In this document: positions 11,481 to 57,525 of the stretch, piece by piece | Layout of the letters: each line of letters begins with the position of its first letter | Position numbering within the stretch: position 1 is the stretch's first letter | Source: a bacterium | Lineage (GTDB): Bacteria > Krumholzibacteriota > Krumholzibacteriia > LZORAL124-64-63 | NCBI GenBank assembly: GCA_024229695.1 | Contig: JAAESD010000232.1 | Coordinates: forward strand, 35,809 to 99,808 | DNA: 64,000 bases | Direction: 5' to 3' | Translations under genes and position numbers: made by a program | Notes under the pieces: model-generated | The model's input: only the letters and a program-made list of their open reading frames with translations | What the model was told of the DNA's origin: nothing | Databases searched by the model: none

Positions 11481-11483
11481 TTG

Positions 11484-22408: not shown

Positions 22409-22426
22409 GCTCCAAAGGTGAAAGAT

Positions 22427-23311
22427 ATGATGGATTATCAAGAGATGATTGCAAAATTACAACAGTTCTGGAGTGACCAGGGTTGTGTGATTATTCAACC
22501 ATACAATTCTGAAGTAGGTGCAGGGACATTCAACCCAGCCACGTTCTTGAGGTGCCTTGGTCCTGAGCCATGGAAAGTTGCATATGTTGAGCCAAGTCGT
22601 CGACCAAAAGATGGTCGATATGGTGAGAACCCAAACAGGGTTCAGCAGTTTCTGCAGTACCAGGTGATTTTGAAGCCAAATCCAGCAGACTCTCAGGAGC
22701 TTTACCTTGAGTCCTTGCGTGCAATCGGAATTGAACCAGCAGAACATGATATCAGATTTGTTGAAGATGATTGGGAATCACCAACTCTAGGTGCTGCAGG
22801 TCTTGGTTGGGAAGTCTGGATTGACGGTATGGAAATATCCCAATTTACATATTTTCAACAAGTAGGTGGTTTAAAGGTAGATCCTGTTTGTGTTGAACTT
22901 ACTTACGGTCTTCTGCGGATTGCTATGTATATTCAGGGAGTTGAGCATGTCAACGATCTGATGTGGGGTGGTGGACTTACCTGGGGAGATATCCAGGGAC
23001 AATACGAAAAAGAATATTCCGAGTTTAACTTTGAAAAAGCCGATGTAGAGATGTATCGACGAAATTTTGAGGAAAAAGAAGCAGAAGCTCTTGGGTTGAT
23101 TGAGGATGGGCTTATTTTTCCCGGTTATGATTCAATAATTAAATGTAGCCATATTTTTAATTTGCTTGAGGCTCGCGGTGCAATTTCAGTTACCGAAAGA
23201 ACCGGTTATATAAAGAGAGTGCGAACTCTATCGAGGAAAGTTGCAGAAGCATATCTGACCAAGCGTGAGGAAATGGGGTTCCCGTTGTTGAATCGTGAGG
23301 TGTCTGAATAA
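22427..23311 (+). CDS. glyQ: Glycine--tRNA ligase alpha subunit
   Basis: The conserved block [58 protein letters not shown] is present. Confidence 0.9.
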
Positions 23312-28831: not shown

Positions 28832-28854
28832 TTTACTTTTCGTTTAGTCTTTGT

Positions 28855-28883
28855 GGCGCCCCTTTTCAGGGGCGCCTTTTTTT
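28855..28883 (+). terminator. Rho-independent terminator
   Basis: The structure is ggcgcccc-ttttca-ggggcgcc followed by TTTTTTT. Confidence 0.8.
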
Positions 28884-28940
28884 GTGTATCTGCTTTGAAC
28901 AAAATATTTTAATTTGCAACAAGTTAAAGTAAAGTCTGGG

Positions 28941-28970
28941 TTGACACTGTTACGGTTCAATCCCTATATT
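28941..28970 (+). promoter_or_regulatory. Possible sigma-70-type promoter (TTGACA ... CTATAT/TATATT)
   Basis: TTGACA lies at 28941-28946 and a -10-like CTATAT sits 17 nt downstream. The -10 element is weak. Confidence 0.3.
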
Positions 28971-29101
28971 TCATTGGAAGAAGTATAGTAGTCTTGACCC
29001 TGAAACTTCCAAGTTGATCTTGGTTGGTTTTCGTGACAGCAGTGTGTTTTTTACAATTGAAACCATTGCTGTTTGCGGTGTATGAAAGGCGTACACTGAA
29101 T

Positions 29102-31771: not shown

Positions 31772-31806
31772 TTGGTCAAAGTTGGTTTGTCTACAGGAGG
31801 TTGGGT

Positions 31807-34326: not shown

Positions 34327-34393
34327 AAATAGCAGGTGGCACATCTTTGTGATGGTGCCGCCTCTGTAAAATGTTCCGAAAGGTGGACTGGCT

Positions 34394-36736
34394 GTGAAAT
34401 TTTGGCCAAACCGTTTGTACGCAGGTATCCATGCACTATTACTGATTACTATATTATCAGGAGTTTTTTCAGTACCTGTTTACGCACAGGATGATGCCTG
34501 CATGGGTGATGATTTGAGAGTACTATCACCATCTTCTGTTGATGTACAATTATCGCTTGAAGGCAGGTTTGGTGCAGTTGTGACCTGGCCGGAGGTGCCA
34601 GATGATATTTCTACGTGTTCAAGCTCAGTAAATTTAGTTGATGTCGATTTTGATATCGACCTTACAGGAGCATTTGCAGATATTGTTGACAGGGAACTGA
34701 ATTTTTATGTTGAAGCTCCTGGAATTATTGGCAGCCAGACGGATAACAGAGTTGTTTTAGCATGGAGCAATGCAAATCAGGAAGCCACCGGCTCAGTCAT
34801 TGGTGAGATAAATCTTTCCAATAGTGGCGGGGCTTATTATTACGATGCAGGATCTTCTCAATGGCTGCAATACAATACAAATTTGCCAATGAATCTTCCT
34901 TATACTGATTTAGGTGCGTTTTCAGCAGCAGTTGGTGCTCAAGAAAAAGTCTTCGCACAAATCTCTTCAAGTGAGTTCTTCTTCGGTTTGTGGATGAGTA
35001 CTACAGATGAAAATGGGGCTAATTGGAGCAGAATTGCCGAGACTCAATTTCCTGATGGACGATTGAATGATTTTGAAGTTTTATGCTCAAGTTTTTCACC
35101 TGATAATTCAAATACCCTGGTTCTTGGAACAAGTAATGAAGGACTCTGGTTAAGCGTAGATGATGGATCTTCTTTCACTCAAGTTGTCGATGGTTTTGAG
35201 GATATTACAAATTGGTCAAATAAACCTGTAACAAGCATTAACTGGGTAGACTCATCACATCTTTATATTGCTGTTAAAAATGCTGGTGTGTACCTGTCAT
35301 CGGATTCTGGTGCATCGTTCAACTCTATTGGCTTGAATGTTGATCTTGTCGGAAACCCTGGCTCCGCTGGTACTGCTGCCTATACAGTAAACCAGATATT
35401 TATTGATGAGGCTGATGTTAATCATATTTACCTTGCTGTTGAAGATTACTGCTTGTATGAAACAACTGATGCTGGAGATTCATGGATCTGGCCAGCTCAA
35501 TCACTGGTTCTTGATGGATCAACTCTAATTCCGGTTAATGGACTAACAATTGTTGTTGATGACAGTTCTGTCATTGTTGGAACGGAGACCAGCGGTATTT
35601 TCAGGACTTCTGATTCTGGTGAAACATGGACTAATGACACAGAGATACTATTTGCTGAAGATACACCAGAGATACTGAATATTATTAATGACCAAAGCCA
35701 ATCCAGACTGCTTGCAATTGCCGATCAATATGGACTTTTAGAGTGTGCGTACGGCGATGATCAATGGGTTGCTCCTTTGGTAGATTTACCCGGAAACACG
35801 GATTGCTCAAAACTGGCAATATCCAGTAATTCGATACTTTGGGTCGCAACTGAAAGAGGTGGTATATTCCAGCCAGATTCATCTCTGTCACTATCTAGCA
35901 CAATCTATAAATCAAGAACTGAAGTGGGCTATCAAGATCTGGAATTTGGAATTAACCTTCTTATCGGTGAAGGTACGCTTTTAGAAACTACAGCATTCGA
36001 CCTGATTTTCCAGGATTTTCAAGGCTATGCTGTTTGGCGGAGTCAGTTTGGTAGCATGGAAGACATGCAACTTATTGGCCTCTATGATAAAAACAATCCA
36101 GAGACATGTATGCTTGATTATTGTGGATATGAAAATTATCCAGTAGAGCCAGAGTGTTGGGCTGAAAAGAGGTCCGCATGTTATGACTTCAGTACTCCTG
36201 GGATGGTAACATTTTTTGATGATGGTATTTTTAACAGCTTCATTTATTATTATGCAGTTTCAACATTTGATTCTGGTAATACAGCTACTATTTCAGGGCC
36301 TGCAATTACCAATGACCCCCTGTATTCACCTCGGTTTCCAAATGATCCATTGATACCGCTTGATGAATTTGGTGATCCAATACTTGTTGGCGATGGGAAC
36401 ATTGTCCGATTTGATGCCAACAGAGACGCCATGAGTGTTGATAGTGAAGAAGCTGTTTATGCATACCCAAATCCGCTTCGGCTTGAAGCTGGATTCCCTG
36501 AAGCACCTGGCGAATTAGTTACTTTTACAAACCTACCCGCAGGTTCCAGAGTAATGGTTTTCACAGTTTCCGGGGATATTGTTGCTGATTTAACTCCTGA
36601 TTTACAGGAGGGACGAAATATTAAATGGTTTACGAGAAATGATTCAGATGAATTGCTTGCATCAGGTGTTTATATTTATAAAGTCGAATCACCTGGCCGT
36701 GAGGACTATTTCAGCAAGATAATTATTATCAGGTAA
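34394..36736 (+). CDS. Secreted BNR/Asp-box repeat protein (sortilin/Ycf48-like beta-propeller repeats) with a T9SS C-terminal sorting domain
   Basis: The signal peptide ends at VPVYA|QDD. Asp-box-like SxDxGxTW motifs include SDSGETWTN, TDAGDSWIW, SDSGASFNS and VDDGSSFTQ. The C-terminus AYPNPLRLEAG...GVYIYKVESPGREDYFSKIIIIR is a T9SS sorting domain. The GTG start carries the SD sequence aaaggtgg. Confidence 0.75.
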   Translation: MKFWPNRLYAGIHALLLITILSGVFSVPVYAQDDACMGDDLRVLSPSSVDVQLSLEGRFGAVVTWPEVPDDISTCSSSVNLVDVDFDIDLTGAFADIVDRELNFYVEAPGIIGSQTDNRVVLAWSNANQEATGSVIGEINLSNSGGAYYYDAGSSQWLQYNTNLPMNLPYTDLGAFSAAVGAQEKVFAQISSSEFFFGLWMSTTDENGANWSRIAETQFPDGRLNDFEVLCSSFSPDNSNTLVLGTSNEGLWLSVDDGSSFTQVVDGFEDITNWSNKPVTSINWVDSSHLYIAVKNAGVYLSSDSGASFNSIGLNVDLVGNPGSAGTAAYTVNQIFIDEADVNHIYLAVEDYCLYETTDAGDSWIWPAQSLVLDGSTLIPVNGLTIVVDDSSVIVGTETSGIFRTSDSGETWTNDTEILFAEDTPEILNIINDQSQSRLLAIADQYGLLECAYGDDQWVAPLVDLPGNTDCSKLAISSNSILWVATERGGIFQPDSSLSLSSTIYKSRTEVGYQDLEFGINLLIGEGTLLETTAFDLIFQDFQGYAVWRSQFGSMEDMQLIGLYDKNNPETCMLDYCGYENYPVEPECWAEKRSACYDFSTPGMVTFFDDGIFNSFIYYYAVSTFDSGNTATISGPAITNDPLYSPRFPNDPLIPLDEFGDPILVGDGNIVRFDANRDAMSVDSEEAVYAYPNPLRLEAGFPEAPGELVTFTNLPAGSRVMVFTVSGDIVADLTPDLQEGRNIKWFTRNDSDELLASGVYIYKVESPGREDYFSKIIIIR

Positions 36737-36779
36737 TTCCGAACTCCGGTTGAATTTACGGAGTCTATTGGCTAAATTT

Positions 36780-36812
36780 GAGCCCGGCATTTATGTCGGG
36801 CTCATTTTATTT
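36780..36812 (+). terminator. Probable rho-independent terminator
   Basis: The stem gagcccggcat / atgtcgggctc has one mismatch and is followed by ATTTTATTT. Confidence 0.5.
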
Positions 36813-36882
36813 CAAATAGACGAAAGCGTCTTTTGTCAGTCTAGAAAATGTTATGAACAAGGTCAACAATGGAGGCAACCTC

Positions 36883-39567
36883 ATGGCCGAGAAGCAAGTT
36901 TATTTTTTTGGTAAAGACGAAACTGAAGGTAATGGAAAGCAGAAAGCTCTGTTAGGTGGAAAAGGTGCCAATCTTGCTGAGATGGCCAGCCTGGGTATTC
37001 CTGTTCCTCCGGGTTTCACAATCACAACTGATTACTGTATCAGCTATCTGAAAGATAGAAAAATTTCTGATGACTTGAAAAATGAAGTTGCACAAGCAAT
37101 CTCAAAAGTTGAGAAAGTTATGGGAAAAAAATATGCTGATAAGGATGACCCGCTGTTACTCTCTTGTCGCAGTGGTGCTAAAGTTTCAATGCCTGGCATG
37201 ATGGATACTGTTCTGAACATTGGGCTGAATGATGAAACTGTACTTGGTCTGGTAAAGCAAAGTGGCAATGAAGAATTCGCCTATGACTGTTACCGTCGAT
37301 TAGTCCAAATGTACTGTGATGTTGTGATGGGTGTTGATGGTGAAAAATTTGAAGATGCAATCGATGCATTAAAATCAGATGTTGGCGTAAAGCTTGACTC
37401 TGAATTTAGCGCAGATCATTTGCGAACTCTTATTTCTACATTCAAAAGTATAACAAAAGAAGAATGTGGAATAGAATTCCCGACGGATCCAGTTGAGCAG
37501 CTATGGGGCAGTGTTGAAGCTGTATTTCGTAGTTGGGATACGCCAAGAGCAATTACCTATCGTGAAATGAACAGGTTCCCACATGATATGGGTACTGCTG
37601 TAAACGTTCAGGCAATGGTCTTTGGTAATATGGGTGAAAACTCTGCAACTGGTGTTGCTTTTACAAGGGATCCATCAACTGGTGAAGACTTCTTCTACGG
37701 TGAGTTTCTTGTCAATGCACAGGGCGAAGATGTTGTTGCTGGAACCAGAACGCCACAATCATTGAATAATGATGGCCGGCACAGGCTTCCTGATGGCAGC
37801 CCTGCAAAAGACATGGAAACCCTGGAAGAAATTATGCCGGAAGCATACAAAGAACTTGCAGATATCAGAGATACATTGGAAAAACATTACTCTGAAATGC
37901 AGGATGTAGAGTTCACAATTCAAGATGGCAGACTATGGATGCTCCAGACAAGAACTGGTAAGCGTACCGGTATATCAGCATTGAGAATTGCTGTTGAAAT
38001 GTATAACCAGAAATTGATGACTCTTGATCAGGCTTTAATGTCTGTTGACCCGGAGATGCACCTGGACCAGATGCTTCATGAGCAGATTGATCCGGATGCT
38101 GAGCTTGAAGTATTGGGACTGGGACTTCCTGCTTCACCTGGAGCAGCTTGTGGAGAAATAGTCTTTACTGCTGAAGCTGCTGTTATTGCTGCTGCTGGCA
38201 AAGATGTTGTATTGGTCAGGAAAGAGACAAGCCCTGAAGATATCGATGGCATGAACTCAGCTACTGGTATTCTAACTGCTCGTGGTGGTATGACCAGCCA
38301 TGCTGCTGTTGTTGCTCGTGGCATGGGTAAGCCATGTGTTGCTGGCTGTGGTGAGCTTATTGTGAATTCTGCTGCAGGTACAATGGAAATTGGCGGCAAA
38401 ACTTTCAAGGCTGGCGATGAGATTTCTCTTAACGGTACTAAGGGTCATGTAATTAATGGACTGGCTCCACTTGTAGCGCCAAATCTTGAAGACCATAATC
38501 TCACTACTTTAATGGGCTGGGCTGATGAGATTCGTCGAATGAAAGTTAGAACAAATGCTGATTCACCTGATGATGCTAAGCAAGCAATCAAATTTGGTGC
38601 TCAAGGTATTGGACTAACCAGAACAGAACACATGTTCTTTGGTGATGAACGTATTTCAAAAATGCGTGAAATGATTCTTGCAGAAAATGTTGAAGGCAGG
38701 ATTAAGGCACTAGCTCATATACTGCCAATGCAGCAGGCTGATTTTGAGGGTATTTTCCGCGCAATGAACGGATTCCCTGTAACTATTCGTTTGCTTGATC
38801 CACCACTACATGAATTCCTGCCAACTTCAGATATGACTGAGAAGATTAAGTCATTGGCTGGTGAATTGAATGTTTCTTACGATCATCTTGTACAGCGTAT
38901 TGATGCTCTTCATGAGTCAAATCCTATGCTGGGTCATCGTGGTTGTCGTCTTGGATTGACATATCCTGAGATTTATGAAACTCAAGTTGAAGCAATCATC
39001 AGAGCAGCACTTGTTGTTAAAGGTGAGGGTGTAGACGTTCAGCCGGAAATAATGATACCACTGGTTGGTACTGTGAAGGAACTTGCTAATCTGAGAACGA
39101 TGGCAGTTGAGTTGGCTGATAAGTTGATTAAAGATTCTGGAACCGATCTTTCTTACCTTGTAGGAACAATGATTGAAATTCCAAGAGCCGCTTTGCTTGC
39201 TGATCAAGTTGCAGAGCATGCAGATTTCTTTAGTTTTGGCACTAATGACTTGACCCAGATGACATTTGGATATAGTCGTGACGATACCAAGGATTTTGTT
39301 GATAATTATATCAGAAAAGGCATTCTGCCTTCTGATCCATTCCAGCAGCTGGATCAAACCGGTGTTGGACAGTTAGTTGAAATGGCTTGTCAAAAGGGTC
39401 GCACAACTAATGGCGATATACACCTGGGAATCTGTGGTGAGCATGGTGGAGATCCAAGCTCAGTCGATTTCTGTCATCGTGTAGGATTGGATTATGTAAG
39501 TTGTTCACCGTTCCGTGTTCCAATTGCTCGTTTGGCAGCTGCTCAGGCAGTAATCAGGAATCGGTAG
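36883..39567 (+). CDS. ppdK: Pyruvate, phosphate dikinase
   Basis: An ATP-grasp N-terminus, the phosphohistidine motif GGMTSHAAVVARGMGKPCVAG and a PEP-utilising C-terminal TIM domain are present. The SD sequence ggagg lies before the ATG at 36883; the ORF extends back to 36853. Confidence 0.9.
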   Translation: MAEKQVYFFGKDETEGNGKQKALLGGKGANLAEMASLGIPVPPGFTITTDYCISYLKDRKISDDLKNEVAQAISKVEKVMGKKYADKDDPLLLSCRSGAKVSMPGMMDTVLNIGLNDETVLGLVKQSGNEEFAYDCYRRLVQMYCDVVMGVDGEKFEDAIDALKSDVGVKLDSEFSADHLRTLISTFKSITKEECGIEFPTDPVEQLWGSVEAVFRSWDTPRAITYREMNRFPHDMGTAVNVQAMVFGNMGENSATGVAFTRDPSTGEDFFYGEFLVNAQGEDVVAGTRTPQSLNNDGRHRLPDGSPAKDMETLEEIMPEAYKELADIRDTLEKHYSEMQDVEFTIQDGRLWMLQTRTGKRTGISALRIAVEMYNQKLMTLDQALMSVDPEMHLDQMLHEQIDPDAELEVLGLGLPASPGAACGEIVFTAEAAVIAAAGKDVVLVRKETSPEDIDGMNSATGILTARGGMTSHAAVVARGMGKPCVAGCGELIVNSAAGTMEIGGKTFKAGDEISLNGTKGHVINGLAPLVAPNLEDHNLTTLMGWADEIRRMKVRTNADSPDDAKQAIKFGAQGIGLTRTEHMFFGDERISKMREMILAENVEGRIKALAHILPMQQADFEGIFRAMNGFPVTIRLLDPPLHEFLPTSDMTEKIKSLAGELNVSYDHLVQRIDALHESNPMLGHRGCRLGLTYPEIYETQVEAIIRAALVVKGEGVDVQPEIMIPLVGTVKELANLRTMAVELADKLIKDSGTDLSYLVGTMIEIPRAALLADQVAEHADFFSFGTNDLTQMTFGYSRDDTKDFVDNYIRKGILPSDPFQQLDQTGVGQLVEMACQKGRTTNGDIHLGICGEHGGDPSSVDFCHRVGLDYVSCSPFRVPIARLAAAQAVIRNR

Positions 39568-41634
39568 ATGCAACTGGACTGGCAATTTGCCTCACCCTTG
39601 AGGTTGATGCTTGTTATAGTAATAATGGCGGTGGGCTTAATAGCCCGCCGCCATTATCTGTTTACGGAGCCTTTACCCGGTTTATGGACTCGCAGGTTGT
39701 TGACTTCCATACGTGTAATTGTACTGGGAATCATAATTCTGCTGATTGCTTCGCCATCGATATTAATTACTAAAAATGAAGATATATTGCCGGAGATTGT
39801 AGTTGCTGTTGATAACTCGCTGAGTATGCAGATTGATGATAGTAAACTTGGTTCAAGGTGGGATACGGGTAAGAGATATGCGTCGATGGTTGATTCTCTG
39901 TTGGCAGACAAGCCTGTGGAAATTCACTTATTGAGTGGGAATGGTTTTGGGCAGCTGGGCAGGCTTGACGGACAACCTGAAAGTACTGGCAGTGATCTTG
40001 GACAGATGGTTGTGCAGTCAAGTAGGTACAACAGAAATATCTCTGGTGTGATTCTAGTCAGCGATGGGCATTCAACAGTTTCCAGATCAAATTTACGAAA
40101 TTCGCCGGGAGTGCAGACGGTAATTGTGGGTGTTGGTGATATTACTGGACCACCAGATCTTGTCTTGCACAATGTGAGAGTCCCTGAGATTGCGTACAGT
40201 GGCGAAAAATTAATTATAGAAGCAGATATAAGCGTCAGCGGTATCTCTGATCAGCATTTAGTGAATGTAGTGCTGAGTTGTGAAGATAAAATAGTTGGTT
40301 CTTATGATGGATTGTTGGGCTCTGGTGATATTGTTTTGCATATGGAAATTCCGTTCATTCCAGAATCGACAGGTTTGCAGTTGCTGGATCTGACTTGTGA
40401 GCCACTTGTCAACGAGCGTTTCCAATCGAACAACAAAGTGTCAGTGGCAGTTACCGTGCATCCTGGTAGGTCGAGAGTTTTAATGTTGACTAATAAGCCG
40501 GACTGGGATGCGAAGTTCATGAGTCGGGCTGCTCTGCTCGAGCATCGGTTAGAGTTGTTTGTTGCGTACAAAGCTCCATCCGGTTGGACTCTTTCCGATT
40601 CTCTGACATCGTGGGATTTACCTTCTAAAAAAGAGGATTGGTTGCAGTGGGATGGAGTGATTCTTGGCGACTATCAAGGCTCTGTCAATGGTCTTGAAGA
40701 TGCCGTTGAGGCAGGCTGTGGACTATTGGTATTAGGTGGCAACTCCAGGTTTGATTCATTGGCAGGAGTACGTTCAACTGGTGTTGTGCAAGGGGATTGG
40801 CTGTTGCGTCGAGCTGAGATTGAACAGCAGCATCCACTACTCAATGGGTTGTACGGAGTACCTTTGGATATTAACAGCCACTGGCTGTCACCGATGTCTG
40901 AAGTTGTTGGTTGTGAAACCAGTGGACAGGTACTTCTGGAGGCTGTCTGGAAACAGACTTTGCCGTTGTTGGTTGTTAATGAGAATGGCGCTGGAAGAGT
41001 GGCCTGGTTTGGAAGTAATGAATTGTGGTCGATGCAGTTCTGGCAGCCGGTTTCAGATATAACCAGTCATCCGGTTGTGAAATTGGCTCAGAATATGCTT
41101 GCCTGGGTTGCTGATGGAGATCGATCGGGCAAAATTGTACTTTCAGGTAAGCGCAATGTTTACGACGTGGGGCAGATTGTTCATATTACAGGGGTACTGG
41201 CAGATTCAGACTTAGCAGCTGTGAGTGCTCAACTGAATAATCTTGAATCAGGAAAGACCACAGAATATAGCATGTTTGGGGCAGGGGAAGGTCGGTATGC
41301 ATTGGAATTGCCTCAACTTGAACCTGGTAAGTACTCTGTTTCTGTTGATGGTGCAGAGTTGAATTTTGCGGTCGTTGAGTCTGGAGTTGAGTCTACCCAG
41401 GTTACTCAAAATGTTTCAGCCCTAAAGTCTACTGCAAGCTCTACAGGGGCTGAGTACATCAATGGGGAATCTCAGTTGCTTGTAACTGAATTGCTTGAAC
41501 AGTTCGATTTAAAATCCAGAACTGGTGTCATACGCACAAGGTATAGCCTTGGAAGTAGCTGGTGGTTGGTCGTTGGTATTGTTTTGTTATTGTCTATTGA
41601 ATGGTTTACACGTCGACGATTAGGTATGCTGTAG
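39568..41634 (+). CDS. Membrane protein with an N-terminal pair of transmembrane helices, a VWA-like domain (MIDAS-like motif DNSLS) and a C-terminal transmembrane anchor with an RRR tail (BatA-like)
   Basis: Two N-terminal hydrophobic helices precede VVAVDNSLSMQIDD (DxSxS) and ILVSDGHST. The C-terminus is GSSWWLVVGIVLLLSIEWFTRRRLG. Confidence 0.6.
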   Translation: MQLDWQFASPLRLMLVIVIMAVGLIARRHYLFTEPLPGLWTRRLLTSIRVIVLGIIILLIASPSILITKNEDILPEIVVAVDNSLSMQIDDSKLGSRWDTGKRYASMVDSLLADKPVEIHLLSGNGFGQLGRLDGQPESTGSDLGQMVVQSSRYNRNISGVILVSDGHSTVSRSNLRNSPGVQTVIVGVGDITGPPDLVLHNVRVPEIAYSGEKLIIEADISVSGISDQHLVNVVLSCEDKIVGSYDGLLGSGDIVLHMEIPFIPESTGLQLLDLTCEPLVNERFQSNNKVSVAVTVHPGRSRVLMLTNKPDWDAKFMSRAALLEHRLELFVAYKAPSGWTLSDSLTSWDLPSKKEDWLQWDGVILGDYQGSVNGLEDAVEAGCGLLVLGGNSRFDSLAGVRSTGVVQGDWLLRRAEIEQQHPLLNGLYGVPLDINSHWLSPMSEVVGCETSGQVLLEAVWKQTLPLLVVNENGAGRVAWFGSNELWSMQFWQPVSDITSHPVVKLAQNMLAWVADGDRSGKIVLSGKRNVYDVGQIVHITGVLADSDLAAVSAQLNNLESGKTTEYSMFGAGEGRYALELPQLEPGKYSVSVDGAELNFAVVESGVESTQVTQNVSALKSTASSTGAEYINGESQLLVTELLEQFDLKSRTGVIRTRYSLGSSWWLVVGIVLLLSIEWFTRRRLGML

Positions 41635-41660
41635 TTCCTCCCGGAATGTGATTTTATCAC

Positions 41661-43337
41661 TTGATTCGATCTGTTATTTGTTTCCTCTTGATTGCCAGAG
41701 TTTGCTCAGCAGTTTTGGTGCTGAACGAAGTAATGTATGACCCTGCCGGCGCTGATGCTGGTAAGGAGTTTATCGAATTATATAACAGTGGTTCTGAACC
41801 GCTGTCTCTTCTAGGGGTGCAGGTAGCTTTTGCAAATGGAGCAAATGGGCCAGACTGGCAAACACGATGGGTTGGCAGTGAGCACCATAGTATAGAGGCG
41901 GGTGGATTTTTCCTGATTGCCGATACCGGTTGGGATGGCAATGCCGATGCAATAGCAAACCTGGACCTCCAGAATGGCCCAGATGGAATAATGCTCACTC
42001 GTGAGGGTACTTATCTTGACCTCCTGGGCTATGGACCATTGCAGCATGAGGGGCTTTGTGAAGAGATTCCGCATCCAGGGTCAGGGTCTGGCAAGTCTAT
42101 AGGTAGAAAACCTGATGGTAATGATACCGATGTTAATAGCCTCGACTGGTTCATACTTGAAGAACCAAATCCCGGTTCAGAAAATTTCAGGCAGTTTTCA
42201 ATTGCATCAGTTGATTTGGAGCATTGGCCACCAGTTCTATTAATTGGTTCTGGAACAGTTGTAAGTAAAATCACTCTTTTTAATGATGGCCTTCAGAACA
42301 TTTCATCAACCAATATTCAGATTAATGCCGACGGTGTTGAAGTAGGATCAACATATATTACAGAGATTGAATCCGGTTCTTCTGCAGACGTTTATCTGAC
42401 TTGGTCTATTTCACATGCAGGTTCATATGAAATTGAACTGACATTTTCCAACAGCGAAATATCGGCAATTAATTTGGGCGTATATCAGTCCGGCTTATTG
42501 GGGTTGGTTTTATCTGAAGTGATGGCAGCCCCAGGGGCTGAAAGTTGTGAATGGATAGAGGTAGAAAACTACACTGATGAAGTCATGGATTTATCCGGTT
42601 ATCGAATTAAAGATGCAGACAACGAGTCACAACCAATACCAAATGTCTCAATTTATCCCAATCAGAAAATTATAATCGCTCAGAGTGCTGATGTTTTTAC
42701 GCAATGGTGGTTGAGTGAACAGCAAAATGGAGCGTGGCCAGATTGCAGTATGCCAGTGCTTGTTGAATTGGATGGGAGCTGGCCGACCATTAATAATTCT
42801 GCGCCGGATGATCGTAACTACGCTGATTATATCTGCCTGATGCTCCCTGAAAGAGTTGTAATAGACTGGTTGCATTTAGGGGATAGTTGGCCCATCCCTG
42901 CAGCTCGTTCTGTTGAGCGAGTTAATAGAGAACCGATTGGTGACCCAAGTTGGAACTGGCGACCATCTACTGCAACAGCACGCTCAACTCCTGGATGTTC
43001 GAATAGTGTAAGTGGTGGACCGGTTGTCCACTCAGCTGTAATTGCGAAACCAAATCCGGTCACAGATGGCGTACAGCACATATCGTTTTTTGTGAGTCCT
43101 CCAGCTACTGGATGGCAGGCGAGAATTTTTAATTTATCAGGCAAGTGTGTCAGGGAACTTGGTGGGGATCAACTTGGTGAAGGGCCCCGAGATATTTTCT
43201 GGCAAGGAAATGATGATAGTGGCAAACAGTTGTCGTCGGGAGGATATATCCTGCTTGTACAGCAGGTCAATGATTCGAATGAATTGCTTTGGTCTGACAA
43301 GCTTTTGCTGGCAATCGATTATGGCGCAATACGATGA
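41661..43337 (+). CDS. Tandem lamin-tail-domain (LTD) protein with a T9SS C-terminal sorting domain
   Basis: Two LTD-like segments are present: LVLNEVMYDPAGADAGKEFIELYNSGSEPLSLLGVQV and LVLSEVMAAPGAESCEWIEVENYTDEVMDLSGYRIKD. The C-terminus AKPNPVTDGVQHISFFV...ARIFNLSGKCVREL...GGYILLVQQ is sorting-domain-like. Confidence 0.7.
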   Translation: MIRSVICFLLIARVCSAVLVLNEVMYDPAGADAGKEFIELYNSGSEPLSLLGVQVAFANGANGPDWQTRWVGSEHHSIEAGGFFLIADTGWDGNADAIANLDLQNGPDGIMLTREGTYLDLLGYGPLQHEGLCEEIPHPGSGSGKSIGRKPDGNDTDVNSLDWFILEEPNPGSENFRQFSIASVDLEHWPPVLLIGSGTVVSKITLFNDGLQNISSTNIQINADGVEVGSTYITEIESGSSADVYLTWSISHAGSYEIELTFSNSEISAINLGVYQSGLLGLVLSEVMAAPGAESCEWIEVENYTDEVMDLSGYRIKDADNESQPIPNVSIYPNQKIIIAQSADVFTQWWLSEQQNGAWPDCSMPVLVELDGSWPTINNSAPDDRNYADYICLMLPERVVIDWLHLGDSWPIPAARSVERVNREPIGDPSWNWRPSTATARSTPGCSNSVSGGPVVHSAVIAKPNPVTDGVQHISFFVSPPATGWQARIFNLSGKCVRELGGDQLGEGPRDIFWQGNDDSGKQLSSGGYILLVQQVNDSNELLWSDKLLLAIDYGAIR

Positions 43338-44056
43338 AGGTATGGTTGTTTGTTCTGTTGGCTGTACTTGTTGGGAATGCATCTGCTGGTTTCAGAGATG
43401 CTGATCAGGGGTGGGTTATTCCTCCCGACGATTGTAGAGAGAGAAACACAGGATATTTCGGCGCAGTTTCAGTGAGTTCATTATATCAAATGCCAGAACT
43501 GCCAATGCAGTCAGTCCTGTCGGGTTGGTCTTCAGAGAAATGGCATATGGCATTCAGGTGGCACAAACTGGGAGGTGATGTATACAGAGAAGATTCGTTG
43601 TCAGTGGATATGCTGTTTGGTGGAAGTTTAAAATTTGGAATCAAAGTGGAACACGAATCGCAGCAGTTTTCAGATGTTCCAGGATGGAACACTTTATACA
43701 GTTTTGTTACTCGGTATGATTATCGTGAATCAATAACTTTAAAATCTACCACTCCGATTTCAGGGGCAATGCTTGCGACCAGAGATTATGAGCAACTATT
43801 GATGATTATACGAAGCGAGGATGTTTTATTCGCTCTGGGGATAGATGATACCAATTCTGGTGAAAAAAGTGTTAGACTTGGGCTTGATTGGTTGCTTCAT
43901 CACATGTTCCGGGTCGGAGCAATAGTTGATACAAGCTCAAGCTCTACTGGATTGACCACATCAATTAAAATCGGCAAAATTCTAACTAGAAGTTCTCATC
44001 TGGCACATCCCGAGCTTGGAATGACGCACAGGTGGCAGCTGATTATTTCAAGATGA
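43334..44056 (+). CDS. Secreted hypothetical protein (240 aa)
   Basis: A signal peptide (MKVWLFVLLAVLVGNASA) is present. The ATGA overlap with the upstream gene suggests translational coupling. Confidence 0.5.
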   Translation: MKVWLFVLLAVLVGNASAGFRDADQGWVIPPDDCRERNTGYFGAVSVSSLYQMPELPMQSVLSGWSSEKWHMAFRWHKLGGDVYREDSLSVDMLFGGSLKFGIKVEHESQQFSDVPGWNTLYSFVTRYDYRESITLKSTTPISGAMLATRDYEQLLMIIRSEDVLFALGIDDTNSGEKSVRLGLDWLLHHMFRVGAIVDTSSSSTGLTTSIKIGKILTRSSHLAHPELGMTHRWQLIISR

Positions 44057-45543
44057 TTGTTATAACAGTTTTATGCTTGTTGTGTTTCATCTCTTCAGTA
44101 TTTGCACAGGAATCTGACGAGATTGAAATGATGGTAGAGGATGGTCTGATTTCTTCGGAACAAGTAGAGGACTTGTGGTTCCAGGAGATTGATGCAAGTG
44201 CAAAATCAAATTTGTATATTAAAGCAGAACAGTTAACTGTCAGGTCATTTGGTTCAATCTATTCAGTTAGCGGCGGTCTGTATTTCAGGCAAAAATATCA
44301 GGAGCACGTTGCCAGGAGTGGCTTTGTGGCTGCTGGATTTACTGGGCTTGAACTTATAGTTGGTAAGGTGATTGCGGAGTCTGGGATGGGGTTGCTGATA
44401 GCTGATCCAGGACGCTGGCGTTCCATGAGTGCCACTTCACCTCTGGGGAAATCTGAAAAACATATCAGGGGATCCACTTCAACATCAACTCAATCAGAGT
44501 CTGATTCCTACAGCCTTGGATATCATACAAGATGGCTCAGGGGAGCAGTCATAGTTGAAGCTGATAACCTGAAAAATATATGCGGATATGTATCGACTGC
44601 TTTTGGGCCAGTCCGCTCAACTGTTACAATTTCAAAACGCAATGGCGGGCAGGGAGCTTCGGTCTTTGGAAGTATCGATTCCCCCAGTTTTACTGTTCAA
44701 TCGGAAATCGCCAGTTTCAGGCGAGGTTTATACGCGGTGTCATATGCACATTCTTCTCTATTTTCATATTCAGGGAAAAAGGGGAAACTGGAAATGTTAG
44801 CAGCAGTTAGTGAACCTGGATTTCAGTTTGATAATGGCAGAGTGCCGGTGGTTTTGCCTAGCACTGGTGGCTCCGGTTTGGCGTTGAGATGGTTCTATAA
44901 ATGCAGCTCTGATGTGAATCTTTCATCGCTGTTTGCTAGTTCCCGATCGAGGTATTTGACCGATACAGGTTATGCTGTTGCCAGAAGAACAAAAATACAA
45001 ACCGGAATCAGTTTGAAACTTGATAATGATCTCAACACAGGTGGCATGGTAGTAATAGATTATTATGGCAAGTCGGGTTGGCATAGTATTGCACAGTGGC
45101 TCCCTTATTCAAAAGAATCGGAGAATTTGCAAGTACGTTTCAGCAGTTGGGCTCAGAAATATTGGAACGATTACAGGATGAAACTTGCTGTTAAATATAC
45201 AGTTAAGGAGAATAAGTATTATTTGAATGACGAAGTTATTCCGATGGAATCAAGGATATTGTTTAATATCAGAGTAGATAAACAATCGGATAGTGGATTT
45301 GGAATAAAATTTGAGTATGGACACGCATGGGGTGACCAATTGGATATCGTGACTGTGTCAGTTCCAAGTGCAGGGCAGATGCGATCATTCCATTGGTCCA
45401 GGCGTAATGATTTATGGTTGGTCAGTCTCAATCACAAAAGTAAATCTGGAATTATTTCACTGACATTCGACAAGAGCAAAGTAGAGCCATACGGATTGCG
45501 CGATTATTCTGCTCAATTGTACTGGCAGAAAAACTGGAGATGA
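44053..45543 (+). CDS. Secreted hypothetical protein, possibly an outer-membrane beta-barrel
   Basis: A signal peptide (MIVITVLCLLCFISSVFAQE) is present. The sequence shows an alternating hydrophobic pattern and a Tyr/Trp-rich C-terminal region. The start overlaps the upstream stop. Confidence 0.5.
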   Translation: MIVITVLCLLCFISSVFAQESDEIEMMVEDGLISSEQVEDLWFQEIDASAKSNLYIKAEQLTVRSFGSIYSVSGGLYFRQKYQEHVARSGFVAAGFTGLELIVGKVIAESGMGLLIADPGRWRSMSATSPLGKSEKHIRGSTSTSTQSESDSYSLGYHTRWLRGAVIVEADNLKNICGYVSTAFGPVRSTVTISKRNGGQGASVFGSIDSPSFTVQSEIASFRRGLYAVSYAHSSLFSYSGKKGKLEMLAAVSEPGFQFDNGRVPVVLPSTGGSGLALRWFYKCSSDVNLSSLFASSRSRYLTDTGYAVARRTKIQTGISLKLDNDLNTGGMVVIDYYGKSGWHSIAQWLPYSKESENLQVRFSSWAQKYWNDYRMKLAVKYTVKENKYYLNDEVIPMESRILFNIRVDKQSDSGFGIKFEYGHAWGDQLDIVTVSVPSAGQMRSFHWSRRNDLWLVSLNHKSKSGIISLTFDKSKVEPYGLRDYSAQLYWQKNWR

Positions 45544-53554: not shown

Positions 53555-54010
53555 ATGACAACTGAAAATTTACCGTGGTACAAAAAAGATGACTCAAAAG
53601 AGTTTTTGACCGCTGAAAAAGTAATCTATGCCGCGCTGTCCAAAAAGGCAGAGAACATCGTTGTTCTTGATCTGAGGGGCAATTCAGATATTGCTGACTT
53701 TTTTGTTGTTATGACTGCTACAACCAATGTGCAAGTGAGTGCAGTAAGTCGCTCTATTACTAACAAGTTAATCAAATTTGGCGAGAAACCTCTTTATAAA
53801 GAGGGTGAGGATACTCAGAACTGGGTGTTGATAGATTATTTTGACATCGTAGTTCATGTGATGCAGCCAAAAACGCGAGAATACTATAATCTGGAAAAAT
53901 TATGGGGTGATGTTCAGCGATTGGATGTTCCTGAAGATTACTTTGATAATCAGGAAGTACGTGACCGGCATCCAGAGCTGTTTGATGCTGATGAGGTGGA
54001 AAGCGAATGA
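53555..54010 (+). CDS. rsfS: Ribosomal silencing factor RsfS (Iojap)
   Basis: The segments VVLDLRGNSDIADFFVVMTATTNVQVSAVSRSI and IVVHVMQPKTREYYNLEKLWGD are present. Confidence 0.85.
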   Translation: MTTENLPWYKKDDSKEFLTAEKVIYAALSKKAENIVVLDLRGNSDIADFFVVMTATTNVQVSAVSRSITNKLIKFGEKPLYKEGEDTQNWVLIDYFDIVVHVMQPKTREYYNLEKLWGDVQRLDVPEDYFDNQEVRDRHPELFDADEVESE

Positions 54011-55749
54011 CAATAGTTGAGATAATCAAAAAGGAACTCGCCAGTAAACTTGAACTTGTCGGTATTTATGAAGGCGATGTTGAAATATCACTGGAAAAGC
54101 CGCGTGACAGATCACATGGTGATTTTAGTAGTAGCGTTGCGTTGGCTTCAGCAAAAAAACTGAAAAGAAATCCACGGGAACTTGCCAGTGAACTTGCTGC
54201 TAAACTGGAGTTTGATACCAATCTGATATCTGATGTCGAGATTGCTGGGCCTGGATTTATTAATTTCAGGCTGACCAAAAGCCATAAACTGGGGCAGATG
54301 CTTGATCTCTGGAATGAAGTTGGGGCTGTTGAGTCAATTAAAACCGGTAACAACAAGCGGATAAATATCGAATTCATAAGTGCCAATCCCACTGGGCCTC
54401 TGAATGTTGTATCTGCTCGAGCTGGTTCATTTGGTGCAACGCTGGTCAAACTGTTAAAAGCAACCGGATATGATGCACATGCTGAATACTATGTGAACGA
54501 TGCAGGCCGGCAGGTCATGTTGCTTGGTAGAAGTCTGCGTGCAAGGTTACTAGAAATCAAAGGTGCCGATTTTGAATTCCCTGAAGGTGGTTACAAGGGA
54601 AAATATATTACTGTAATGGCAGAAGAACTTATCGATTTGGATTGTGATGCTATTCAAGCTGCAAGCCAGGTTTTCAATGATGAAAGTTTTCAACGGGTGA
54701 CAGCACCTGAAGGAACTGCCGCCCAGTGGCTGGAGCTGCCAGAAGAAGAGTCTGCGAAAAGTTTTTCCAAGTATGCTTTGATGAAGATTCTTACATGGCA
54801 AAGGCAAACTTGCCGAAGGTTTAACCTGAAGTTTGACACCTGGTATTTTGAATCTGAGCTGTATGAGTCAAAGAGAATTGAAAGAGCTTATGATAAACTG
54901 AAAAGTAATGGAGTTACTTACAGTCTTGATGATGCTGTCTGGTTTCGATCAACTGATTATGGTGACGAAAAGGATAGGGTAATTGTCAAGAGCGATGGTG
55001 CAGCAACCTATTTTTTAGCTGATATTGCTTATCATTATCATAAGTTTCAACGTGGCTTTGAACATGCTATCAATTTTCTTGGTCCTGACCATCATGGACA
55101 CATTCCAAGAATGCGTGGTGCAATGAAAGCACTTGGTGTTCCAGATGGTTGGTTGGAAATACAGATACTACAGCAGGTTAATTTTGTAGAAGATGGCAAA
55201 CCAATAGATATGTCAAAGCGTGAAGGCCAATTCGTTTCGATGGATGCTCTTGCAGATGATGTTGGTGCTGATGTTGCCAAGTATATATTCCTGACCAGAA
55301 AGCCAAACTCACATCTGGATTTCGATCTCGATCTGGCTCGTGAACAGTCAAGTGACAACCCGGTGTTTTATGTTAAATATGCTCACGCCAGGATTTGCTC
55401 TGTTTTACGCAAGGGCATGGAACAGGGAATGGACCCAGGTGAGCCCGATATCGAAACATTGAAATACCTTTCCGATGAGCACGAATTAGCATTGATCTCG
55501 GAGCTTATAAGATTGCCTGATGTAATTGCAGGGTCTGCAAAAGCCAGAGAGCCACACAGGCTGACTCTATATCTTGATGATATTGCTGGCCACTTTCACC
55601 AGTTCTATCACAATTGCAAGATTGTTTCTGATAACAAGGAAACAACTTTGGCTCGATTACAATTGTCATTGGTTACAAAAGATATCCTGGCCAGAGTTCT
55701 TGGTCTGGTCGGTGTGGAAGCACCAGAATATATGGGAGATAAAGATTAG
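54007..55749 (+). CDS. argS: Arginine--tRNA ligase, with a non-canonical HIGH region
   Basis: An ArgRS N-terminal add-1 domain, the block ISANPTGPLNVVSARAG, DMSKREG and a C-terminal DALR anticodon-binding domain are present. The length is 580 aa. Confidence 0.8.
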   Translation: MTIVEIIKKELASKLELVGIYEGDVEISLEKPRDRSHGDFSSSVALASAKKLKRNPRELASELAAKLEFDTNLISDVEIAGPGFINFRLTKSHKLGQMLDLWNEVGAVESIKTGNNKRINIEFISANPTGPLNVVSARAGSFGATLVKLLKATGYDAHAEYYVNDAGRQVMLLGRSLRARLLEIKGADFEFPEGGYKGKYITVMAEELIDLDCDAIQAASQVFNDESFQRVTAPEGTAAQWLELPEEESAKSFSKYALMKILTWQRQTCRRFNLKFDTWYFESELYESKRIERAYDKLKSNGVTYSLDDAVWFRSTDYGDEKDRVIVKSDGAATYFLADIAYHYHKFQRGFEHAINFLGPDHHGHIPRMRGAMKALGVPDGWLEIQILQQVNFVEDGKPIDMSKREGQFVSMDALADDVGADVAKYIFLTRKPNSHLDFDLDLAREQSSDNPVFYVKYAHARICSVLRKGMEQGMDPGEPDIETLKYLSDEHELALISELIRLPDVIAGSAKAREPHRLTLYLDDIAGHFHQFYHNCKIVSDNKETTLARLQLSLVTKDILARVLGLVGVEAPEYMGDKD

Positions 55750-56658
55750 ATGTCTATCTTAGTTGTCGGGTCTGTTGCATACGATACTATTGAAACTGTT
55801 TCTGAACGACGTGAAAAGCAACTTGGAGGAAGTGCGAGTTATTTTTCGATTGCTGCTTCCCGGTTTTCGTCTGTGCGTGCTGTTGGCGTTGTTGGCGATG
55901 ATTTCAGGCAATCTGATATGGACTTACTTGTTTCCAAAGGTATAGATGTTGCTGGTATTGAAAGAGCAGAAGGAAAGACTTTTTCATGGTCAGGTAGATA
56001 TCATCAGGACATGATAGAGCGAGATACTCTTGCAACTGAGCTAGGAGTATTTGAAACTTTCCAGCCAGTTCTTCCTATTGGCTGGTCTGAGTCTCCTTAT
56101 GTTTTATTGGCTAATATACATCCATCGTTACAGTCTGATGTTCTATCTAAAATGAAATCATCGAAGCTTGTAATTTTAGATACTATGAATCTTTGGATTA
56201 AAAATACCAGAGAGGAATTAGTTTCGGTTTTAAAAGATGTGGATATTTTGCTTGTTAACGATAGCGAAGCCAGACTTCTATCAGGTAAAGAGAGCCTGTC
56301 TGAAGCAGCTACAATTATCAGAGACATGGGACCAGAGAAAATTGTAATCAAAAAAGGTGAGCATGGTGCATTGCTGTTTTGTAAAGATTCAGTACTTGCT
56401 GTACCAGCTATAATCCTGCCGGAAGTAGTTGATCCAACAGGAGCTGGCGATAGCTTTGCCGGTGGTTTTATTGGCCATCTTGCTGCTGAAGGTGCAGATC
56501 GTAACAGTTCTGACCTGGTTTTCAGGCAGGCGATGGTCAGTGCTACAGCAGTTGCGAGCCATTGTCCAGAAGCTTTTAGTGTTGAAGGATTATTGTCAAT
56601 GGATGAAAATAGCTATCAAAGCAGGAGAGATACTCTTTTAGATATGATGGTGCCGTGA
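55750..56658 (+). CDS. PfkB-family carbohydrate kinase (ribokinase-like)
   Basis: The N-terminal ILVVGSVAYD and the anion-hole motif DPTGAGDSFAGGFI are present. Confidence 0.8.
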   Translation: MSILVVGSVAYDTIETVSERREKQLGGSASYFSIAASRFSSVRAVGVVGDDFRQSDMDLLVSKGIDVAGIERAEGKTFSWSGRYHQDMIERDTLATELGVFETFQPVLPIGWSESPYVLLANIHPSLQSDVLSKMKSSKLVILDTMNLWIKNTREELVSVLKDVDILLVNDSEARLLSGKESLSEAATIIRDMGPEKIVIKKGEHGALLFCKDSVLAVPAIILPEVVDPTGAGDSFAGGFIGHLAAEGADRNSSDLVFRQAMVSATAVASHCPEAFSVEGLLSMDENSYQSRRDTLLDMMVP

Positions 56659-56757: not shown

Positions 56758-57525
56758 ATGGAACAGCATGATAATGACAACTCATGGGTTCAGGATGCTG
56801 AAAACTGGATATGCCAAATAAAAGATGTTCGCCAGTGCAAAATTGATCTTGATAATGCCGGGGAAGTTGTTGGTGTACATGTAGTTGCTGCAATGGACCG
56901 TGATCCTAAACAAATTGTAAGGGATGTAGAGGGACTGCTGAAAGCTCGTCTTGATCTCGATATTTTTTATAAAAAAATTGGTGTTGTTCAGGTTGTTGAT
57001 GGTGAAAGTTCACATTTGAATCAAAAGGCTGCACCTGTACCTGTTTCTAAGCCAATTTCAAGCAAACCCACGCAAATTTCAAAACAACCACCAGCCAAAC
57101 CTGTTGCAAGACCTGCTCCAGCTGTTATATCACGCCTGGTTTGTGAGTCTGTTTCAGTTCGAAGTGGTCGTAATCTTTCAGCTGAAGTAGAACTCAAAAA
57201 TGGGGATGAAAGTTTTACTGGTATTTGCAAAGGGTCAAATAGTACCGGAAATGACTTGATGCTTGTAGCCAGCGCATCTGTTTCTGCACTTAATAAATTA
57301 CTTGATGGTGACATGGAGCTGGCTTTATCGGAAATAAGGGAAGCCAATGTTTCTGGTGACAAAGTGTTGCTTGTTGCTATAGAGTTGATTTCTGGCAGGA
57401 AAATAGAAAAGCTGTATGGGACTTGTGCCATTCAGCGAAACTTGCACCAAGCTGTTGTTTACTCAGTTCTGGATGCAGTTAACAGGAAACTATCTGTAAT
57501 TTCCAACATGGGAACTGCAGGATAG
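56758..57525 (+). CDS. Hypothetical protein (255 aa) with a Pro/Lys-rich linker in the middle
   Basis: The ORF has a linker PVPVSKPISSKPTQISKQPPAKPVARPAPA. No domain was recognised. Confidence 0.45.
   Translation: MEQHDNDNSWVQDAENWICQIKDVRQCKIDLDNAGEVVGVHVVAAMDRDPKQIVRDVEGLLKARLDLDIFYKKIGVVQVVDGESSHLNQKAAPVPVSKPISSKPTQISKQPPAKPVARPAPAVISRLVCESVSVRSGRNLSAEVELKNGDESFTGICKGSNSTGNDLMLVASASVSALNKLLDGDMELALSEIREANVSGDKVLLVAIELISGRKIEKLYGTCAIQRNLHQAVVYSVLDAVNRKLSVISNMGTAG

Follow-up and report, generated by a model that had tools for sequence, protein, structure and literature searches.

The HIGH sequence (H-x-G-H) is one of the two textbook signatures of class I aminoacyl-tRNA synthetases. Known HIGH variants keep glycine at position 3 and histidine or threonine at position 1. 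The tryptophanyl-tRNA synthetase (TrpRS) of Bacillus stearothermophilus has TIGN, with the polar non-histidine residues threonine and asparagine at positions 1 and 4, which makes asparagine and serine/asparagine chemically plausible as phosphate ligands. TIGN retains the glycine at position 3, unlike the arginyl-tRNA synthetase (ArgRS) variant described here. This variant is encoded by an argS gene in a 64-kb window, which is the whole stretch of DNA analysed (64,000 nucleotides; positions 35,809 to 99,808 of contig JAAESD010000232.1, assembly GCA_024229695.1, Krumholzibacteriota). In its product both histidines and the glycine of HIGH are gone, replaced by Asn-Val-Val-Ser. The gene is very likely the organism's working housekeeping ArgRS, with a remodelled site for adenosine triphosphate (ATP), and a member of a widespread HIGH-less subfamily.

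The nearest precedent is IleRS2, a natural class I enzyme (isoleucyl-tRNA synthetase) that is altered at HIGH positions 1 and 3 and accommodates the alteration by a shift of the helix tip. Brkic et al. (2023) described its G/AXHH motif as a widespread, housekeeping, altered HIGH without catalytic cost, and called it surprising and previously unrecognised (PMC10485003). IleRS2 keeps two histidines, with positions 1 and 3 swapped and His3 doing the job of His1, and it is linked to mupirocin hyper-resistance. In contrast, the ArgRS variant has no histidine in the motif, shows valine where glycine or histidine is expected and has no known link to an inhibitor; with neither histidine nor glycine left, its change is more radical than that of IleRS2. 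The second described system is the ArgRS of Thermus thermophilus, which reads SVNPNKELHVGH and has an intact HIGH and a degenerate KMSKS. According to PMC8318970, which cites Sekine 2001, KMSK is degenerate in ArgRS and the T. thermophilus enzyme compensates with a lysine of the HIGH loop, so that one class I signature is lost and the catalytic lysine is supplied elsewhere. The subfamily of the window protein shows the opposite combination, with HIGH lost and the MSK lysine kept, and would represent the mirror case of ArgRS with a degenerate KMSKS.

Among solved enzymes, the ArgRS of Campylobacter jejuni (3fnr) is the nearest, as the best match in both sequence and structure (Foldseek E=4.6e-36, template modelling score of 0.88 on the target). 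The two proteins agree in their catalytic core, their MSK loop and their DALR domain, and the blocks SANPTGPL...AR, YVNDAG, TY..ADIAYH, G.DHHG and Q.V...MSKR.G are common to them. However, 3fnr shows H-I-G-H, G-A-D-H-H and K-M-S-K, whereas the window protein shows N-V-V-S, G-P-D-H-H and D-M-S-K, together with Gln265 and Gln390.

The segment at 54361..54441 is in frame with argS and encodes residues 119-145 (INIEFISANPTGPLNVVSARAGSFGAT). Within it, the argS product reads SANPTGPLNVVSAR, where canonical enzymes show SANPTGPLH(I/V)GHAR, and the codons of N133-V134-V135-S136 are AAT GTT GTA TCT, with five base differences from CAT GTT GGT CAT. The motif aligns without gaps to that of 3fnr (SANPTGPLHIGHAR; phmmer E=1.6e-86), and the ArgRS of Pyrococcus horikoshii (2zue) and T. 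thermophilus (1iq0) show HMGH and HVGH, respectively, at the aligned positions. This gap-free alignment to HIGH, HMGH and HVGH therefore places N-V-V-S at the H-x-G-H positions. The class I signature H-x-G-H is absent from the argS product, and no histidine is found within its residues 110-157. The KMSKS-type loop reads D-M-S-K404-R, with aspartate at the first lysine and the second, catalytic lysine present. Furthermore, residues E122, S125, N127, P128, T129, G130, P131 and R138 are conserved in the HIGH-less and the canonical groups alike. The original prediction of a replaced HIGH in argS, five nucleotides away from CAT GTT GGT CAT, in a protein otherwise intact and with a DMSKREG loop (residues 401-407) and a DALR domain, is borne out in all these parts by the in-frame translation, the alignment to solved ArgRS and the Pfam matches.

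The argS gene is an open reading frame (ORF) at 54007..55749 (+ strand) that encodes 580 amino acid residues, unbroken across its 580 codons. Its features are the following:

54025..54273, + strand: N-terminal ArgRS additional domain (residues 7-89; PF03485, E=1.1e-22)
54334..55260, + strand: class I catalytic (Rossmann-fold) domain (residues 110-418; PF00750, E=4.3e-14; order of the model agrees)
54379..54420, + strand: SANPTGPLNVVSAR (residues 125-138), end of beta1, loop and N-terminus of the usual HIGH helix
54403..54414, + strand: N133-V134-V135-S136 at the H-x-G-H positions (gap-free alignment to 3fnr, 2zue and 1iq0)
54799..54801, + strand: Q265, which co-varies with the loss of HIGH (alignment of HIGH-less and canonical ArgRS)
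55081..55095, + strand: G359-P360-D361-H362-H363, with P360 co-varying (same alignment)
55174..55176, + strand: Q390, next to the universally conserved Q389 and directly ahead of the strand running into the MSK loop (alignment and model)
55207..55227, + strand: D401-M-S-K404-R-E-G407, KMSKS-type mobile loop with the catalytic lysine (sequence)
55372..55734, + strand: DALR anticodon-binding domain (residues 456-576; PF05746, E=7.2e-31)

The N-terminal additional domain binds the D-loop of the tRNA in characterised ArgRS. All three ArgRS Pfam domains (PF03485, PF00750 and PF05746) are above their gathering scores, and the ArgRS equivalog model TIGR00456 matches with 393.2 bits (cut-off 261.65), from residue 6 to residue 576 and across profile positions 4-569 out of 569. 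The AlphaFold2 model of the protein (predicted local distance difference test score, pLDDT, of 90.8 and predicted template modelling score of 0.88) keeps the class I topology, and its order of strands and helices is that of a Rossmann-type catalytic fold. In the model, the strand 118-126 runs into a helix beginning at residue 134, and the MSK loop is the sole core segment of low confidence, low pLDDT being usual for a mobile loop. The top 20 PDB matches of the model in Foldseek are all ArgRS, followed by cysteinyl- and methionyl-tRNA synthetases. The argS product is thus assigned to the ArgRS family by homology, architecture and predicted fold, not by its HIGH signature, and within the family to a HIGH-less (N-V-V-S) subfamily of bacterial KMSK-type ArgRS. 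Membership of NrtL (NF045898, ArgS-related anticodon-binding protein), which has a C-terminal DALR-type region in common with it, was rejected, because the NF045898 model reaches 118.3 bits where its cut-off is 340 and matches the C-terminal residues 416-576 only, while the window protein is a full-length, three-domain protein with a catalytic domain.

The distribution of the variant was studied by a homologue search of a 5.8-billion-protein collection, by an HMMER search of 1.84 billion cluster representatives and by a scan of genomes. All of the best 120 matches of the first search (62-97% identity) carry N-[VI]-V-[SN]: 113 show NVVS, five NIVS and two NVVN. Wherever a phylum or class is named for them, it is Candidatus Krumholzibacteriota or Krumholzibacteria, and few parts of the protein are as well conserved among them as the motif and the residues around it. 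In the second search, the best 150 clusters at 50% identity (37-59% identity to the query) comprise 71 with valine or isoleucine at the glycine position, 47 with the canonical H-x-G-H and 32 with intermediate motifs. The 71 are mostly N-[VIA]-V-[SNQ], with position 1 rarely valine, leucine or glycine. Addition of the query and seven Krumholzibacteriota sequences gave a set of 158 sequences, 79 of them HIGH-less. The 32 intermediates of this set show T-x-G-H, H-x-G-N, T-L-G-N and H-x-G-T, as well as forms with alanine in place of the glycine (H-V-A-H, T-V-A-H and S-L-A-H). They may be evolutionary intermediates, and HIGH seems to be unusually plastic in this type of ArgRS.

A degenerate-DNA scan for NP[TV]GPxN[VI]Vx[AG]R in 185,579 species genomes found at least 120 loci. 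All 120 listed loci sit in ORFs of argS length and belong to about 24 named phylum- or class-level groups, apart from 21 unclassified loci: 13 belong to Cloacimonadota, 12 to Leptospirales, seven to other Spirochaetota, 11 to Poribacteria (five of them complete chromosomes), eight to Eisenbacteria, about 17 to Bacillota and six to Actinomycetota. Two belong to each of Krumholzibacteriota, Zixibacteria, Fibrobacteraceae, Calditrichota, KSB1, Armatimonadota and FCPU426, and one belongs to each of Latescibacterota, Gemmatimonadota, Eremiobacterota, Saccharimonadales, Melainabacteria, Verrucomicrobiia, a Bacteroidetes metagenome-assembled genome (MAG) and others. Carriers of the variant include the Poribacteria chromosomes OZ244829.1 and OZ246979.1, OY782499.1 from Cloacimonadales and OZ253574.1 from Leptonemataceae. 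All synonymous codons occur at the motif positions of the 120 listed loci, and the motif codon left unconstrained by the scan encodes serine in 86 (58 AGY and 28 TCN), asparagine in 32, glutamine in two and histidine in none. This codon diversity, with only serine, asparagine or glutamine at the free codon, points to long-term purifying selection for a polar residue other than histidine. A trait specific to Krumholzibacteriota was rejected, as both the cluster-representative search and the genome scan reach many phyla.

The Leptospira ilyithenensis locus reads SANPTGPMNIVSAR, and the best 120 matches to its ArgRS, within Leptospiraceae, all show N-I-V-S, G-P-D-H and K-M-S-K-R. The N-I-V-S species include L. 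biflexa Patoc, L. kobayashii, L. santarosai, L. weilii, L. alstonii, L. kmetyi, L. licerasiae, L. fainei and L. wolffii. Taken together, these hundreds of sequences, drawn from many phyla, show N-[V/I]-V-[S/N/Q] to be fixed and maintained by purifying selection, and the HIGH-less ArgRS form a large, widespread and apparently undescribed group. In public databases these sequences are annotated plainly as arginine--tRNA ligase, and no report of an ArgRS without HIGH was found in the open-access full text of PMC and bioRxiv, although an older report is possible. The unusual ATP-site architecture that the original prediction had offered for this organism is therefore supported in its substance, while its restriction to one organism was too narrow for a subfamily that spans many phyla and includes all sampled Leptospira.

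The columns of a single alignment were compared between the 79 HIGH-less and the 47 H-x-G-H sequences. Few columns separate the two groups:

Position 133: His in canonical, Asn in HIGH-less
Position 135: Gly in canonical, Val in HIGH-less
Position 136: His in canonical, Ser, Asn or Gln in HIGH-less
Position 137: Gly in canonical, Ala in HIGH-less
Position 139: Gly in canonical, Ala in HIGH-less
Position 265: Ile in canonical (37/47), Gln in HIGH-less (65/79)
Position 360: Ala, as GADHH, in canonical (37/47), Pro, as GPDHH, in HIGH-less (75/79)
Position 387: Leu in canonical, Ile in HIGH-less
Position 390: Phe, Leu or Met in canonical (44/47), Gln in HIGH-less (56/79)

Q265 is invariant in an alignment of Krumholzibacteriota and Leptospira. 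The strongest association found is with the lysine at 404, which is present in 77 of the 79 HIGH-less sequences against 24 of the 47 canonical ones (Fisher p=8.4e-12); threonine replaces it in 22 of the 47 canonical sequences (MSTR). In addition, all 102 listed genome loci with a readable loop have SK in the MSK loop. In these data, then, an ArgRS can lose HIGH or the KMSKS lysine, but not both. Position 401 of the HIGH-less sequences is lysine in 44/79 and aspartate in 6/79, this lineage showing D-M-S-K-R and most others K-M-S-K-R; as 401 varies and 404 is kept, only the second lysine is strictly constrained.

No histidine or lysine gained specifically by the HIGH-less group is conserved anywhere in residues 119-174, and no lysine or arginine is found in any group in the loop 128-132 that precedes the motif. 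These two results argue against both a relocation in the manner of IleRS2 and the HIGH-loop lysine of T. thermophilus. The canonical M-S-T-R relatives (22/47) also lack lysine and arginine in residues 128-132, which suggests that the solution of T. thermophilus is not theirs either. Hidden Markov models (HMMs) built with the motif and the co-varying columns masked classed 112 of 119 held-out sequences correctly, which points to a coherent subfamily rather than scattered point variants.

According to Kaiser et al., binding of the adenosine phosphate in class I enzymes relies chiefly on two backbone hydrogen bonds that do not depend on side chains (PMC5919687). In yeast ArgRS these backbone contacts are at residues 153 (the N-terminal bracket) and 405, and few ground-state contacts are made to HIGH (PMC5919687). 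In the HIGH-less enzyme, hydrogen bonds to the phosphates would come from Asn133 and Ser/Asn136, at the start of the helix, and no longer from the two imidazoles; the helix of the model begins at 134 and so puts N133 at its cap, the usual place of the first histidine. ATP would still be held through backbone contacts, one of them at Asn127, an invariant residue which we take to be the equivalent of yeast residue 153. Lys404 of the mobile loop would carry most of the stabilisation of the transition state, and on this proposal it would be indispensable for that reason. The bulk of Val135, at the glycine position that faces the adenine, might be absorbed by repacking at positions 137, 139, 265, 360 and 390.

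That such an enzyme is active is suggested by what the subfamily keeps, and the place of the gene in a conserved core region, described below, points the same way. Residues E122, S125, N127, Y162, N164, D165, Y335, D339, Y342, H343, D361, H362, Q389, M402, R405 and G407 are at least 90% conserved in the canonical sequences and equally so in the HIGH-less ones; among them, E122, Y335 and D339 presumably belong to the arginine pocket. Furthermore, in the survey of Creevey et al. (PMC3151239) ArgRS (COG0018) is single-copy in all 191 genomes sampled, with Leptospira among the groups. If Leptospira has no other ArgRS, its tRNA-Arg must be charged by the N-I-V-S enzyme. TIGR00456 is also one of the bac120 single-copy markers of GTDB. 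Bona fide ArgRS with the same substitution, which the original prediction had named as what would remove the anomaly if they were numerous and active, are in substance those described above, with their activity predicted from conservation and from the single copy reported where Leptospira is included.

Several points weigh against this reading. The first-histidine mutation in several class I synthetases cuts the activation rate about 1000-fold, and the HIGH glycine is strongly conserved and leaves room for the adenine (PMC10485003); with both effects in mind, activity of N-V-V-S is not self-evident. All the PDB ArgRS aligned here carry HxGH, and the putative catalytic roles of N133, S136, K404 and the co-varying residues are drawn from the alignment. 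In the neighbour-joining distance tree the HIGH-less sequences were not recovered as a single clade; 13 parsimony changes are implied, and within- and between-group distances are nearly equal (about 0.60). On the clade of N-V-V-S variants that the original prediction had raised, the masked models separate the groups, and the tree is compatible with one origin or several. L. interrogans, which we believe to be the Leptospira species in the 191-genome set, is absent from the 120 listed Leptospiraceae matches, so its motif is presumed from its relatives. The search for a second argS covered the 64-kb window, which contains none, and the supplements of PMC10936416 contain no argS counts for Krumholzibacteriota MAGs.

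A remodelled ATP pocket could also have been selected because it makes the enzyme resistant to some natural mimic of arginyl-adenylate or ATP that inhibits ArgRS, which would be compatible with a working housekeeping enzyme but seems unlikely to us. In IleRS2, changing HIGH positions 1 and 3 raises the inhibition constant (Ki) of mupirocin up to 1000-fold at little catalytic cost, and that form is widespread (PMC10485003). The patchy, multi-phylum distribution of the HIGH-less ArgRS is one that a transferable resistant allele under selection could yield, and it fits the record of ArgRS as one of the universal genes displaced most frequently by horizontal transfer (10 displacements; PMC3151239). 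However, the same pattern fits neutral drift enabled by redundancy between HIGH and the KMSKS lysine equally well, and no resistance or biosynthetic genes are found beside argS in the 120 listed loci. Nor is a natural inhibitor of the ArgRS ATP site known to us, and none was found in the literature searched.

It is more doubtful still that the gene encodes an ArgRS paralogue without catalytic activity or with a regulatory role (a pseudo-synthetase, a binder of tRNA-Arg or an arginine sensor), with a canonical argS elsewhere doing the charging, as the original prediction had considered. The absence of all three conserved HIGH residues would be expected of such a protein, and non-catalytic ArgS-related proteins exist, NrtL among them. 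The window protein nevertheless exceeds the ArgRS equivalog cut-off well and over its full length, while the NrtL model covers its C-terminal part below cut-off. The residues invariant in canonical enzymes and the MSK lysine are under strong constraint, and a mere binder would not need them all. The gene also holds the conserved rsfS-argS housekeeping position, without a second argS in the window. Moreover, every sampled Leptospira has this form as its ArgRS, and the paralogue explanation is unlikely because the N-I-V-S form must be active where it is single-copy. A sequencing, assembly or frameshift artefact, which the original prediction had also allowed for and which has nothing in its favour beyond the odd sequence itself, can be dismissed as practically nil, since the frame is continuous, 113 of the 120 best homologues, sampled independently, show NVVS and the remaining seven show conservative variants of it, and the motif family recurs in all 120 Leptospiraceae matches and, with differing codons, in at least 120 species genomes.

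Within the window the gene is an ordinary argS, and the novelty lies at the family level, where this variant of a textbook enzyme appears not to have been described before. If the HIGH-less form is the sole ArgRS where it occurs, a subfamily without the histidines or the glycine of the motif would show HIGH to be dispensable, and a testable rule is that HIGH is dispensable only with the KMSKS lysine retained. A broader proposal, which we advance tentatively and with slightly more doubt than confidence, is that an old, multi-phylum subfamily of housekeeping ArgRS, which includes Leptospira with its pathogens and most candidate phyla of the Fibrobacteres-Chlorobi-Bacteroidetes (FCB) group, discarded all the HIGH residues and may be the first class I lineage to carry out activation without a HIGH histidine, by means of a co-evolved N-V-V-S/G-P-D-H-H/Gln265/Gln390 site that depends on the KMSKS lysine. 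In Leptospira, the ATP pocket of ArgRS would then differ from that of the human enzyme at its most conserved point, which is relevant to inhibitor design. For annotation, signature-based methods with a PROSITE-type HIGH pattern will overlook the HIGH-less ArgRS, and automatic labels of a HIGH region in them mislead.

The two genes that adjoin argS in the window are these:

53555..54010, + strand: rsfS, ribosome silencing factor (TIGR00090, 112.6 bits against a cut-off of 56.9)
55750..56658, + strand: gene for a PfkB-family sugar kinase, whose first base directly follows the argS stop

The rsfS stop overlaps the argS start (54007) as ATGA, with GAGGTGG upstream, and rsfS, argS and pfkB form a tightly packed three-gene unit; the housekeeping context rsfS-argS had been recognised correctly. 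The gene order in the window is glyA, nrdR, tatC, polyprenyl synthase, rsfS, argS, pfkB, conserved hypothetical, HD-GYP protein and purM, and the same order is found around argS on the 2.37-Mb contig ERZ25039549:contig_7410, whose ArgRS is 65% identical. Among the 120 listed species loci, rsfS lies directly upstream of the HIGH-less argS in 32, a polyprenyl synthase gene is nearby in 21 and pfkB in 14, these three being the commonest neighbours. A dedicated partner gene that supplies the missing residues in trans was considered and rejected, since all-against-all clustering of the ORFs of these loci gave no universal neighbour. No T-box leader, which would have pointed to regulation by tRNA-Arg charging, was detected by Rfam upstream of the HIGH-less argS in 17 Bacillota loci, and none in the window.

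In the Leptospira locus (argS at 2958-4778, - strand) a CinA-like gene is downstream and a gene for a 7TM-HD membrane protein is upstream; a CinA-like gene is immediately downstream of the HIGH-less argS in 10 of the 120 listed loci. As these neighbours differ, the rsfS-argS-pfkB unit belongs to FCB-type lineages and not to the whole subfamily. The gene at 56758-57525 encodes a protein of 255 residues without NCBIfam match and with a low-complexity linker rich in Pro, Ala and Ser in its middle. In 14 of the 120 listed loci a relative is encoded downstream of argS in the same orientation, mostly not next to it, and the 2.37-Mb contig has an ORF without Pfam match at its position.

The GC content of the window is uniform (about 42-44%) and almost all of its genes are on the + strand; the GC skew is strongly positive all along (0.07-0.21), which fits a leading-strand core region. 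Further synthetase genes, hisS, aspS (4-nt overlap with hisS), glyQ and glyS, are located at 11481-14527 and 22418-25470. A run of very large ORFs (994, 915, 841, 780, 688, 558, 240 and 503 residues) extends from 25847 to 45543 and is broken at 36853-39567 by a gene for pyruvate phosphate dikinase. Most of these ORFs are without Pfam match, two show type-IX-secretion-style C-terminal sorting or FlgD-Ig domains and one has lamin-tail and CARDB domains, and the block looks like one of secreted or cell-surface proteins.

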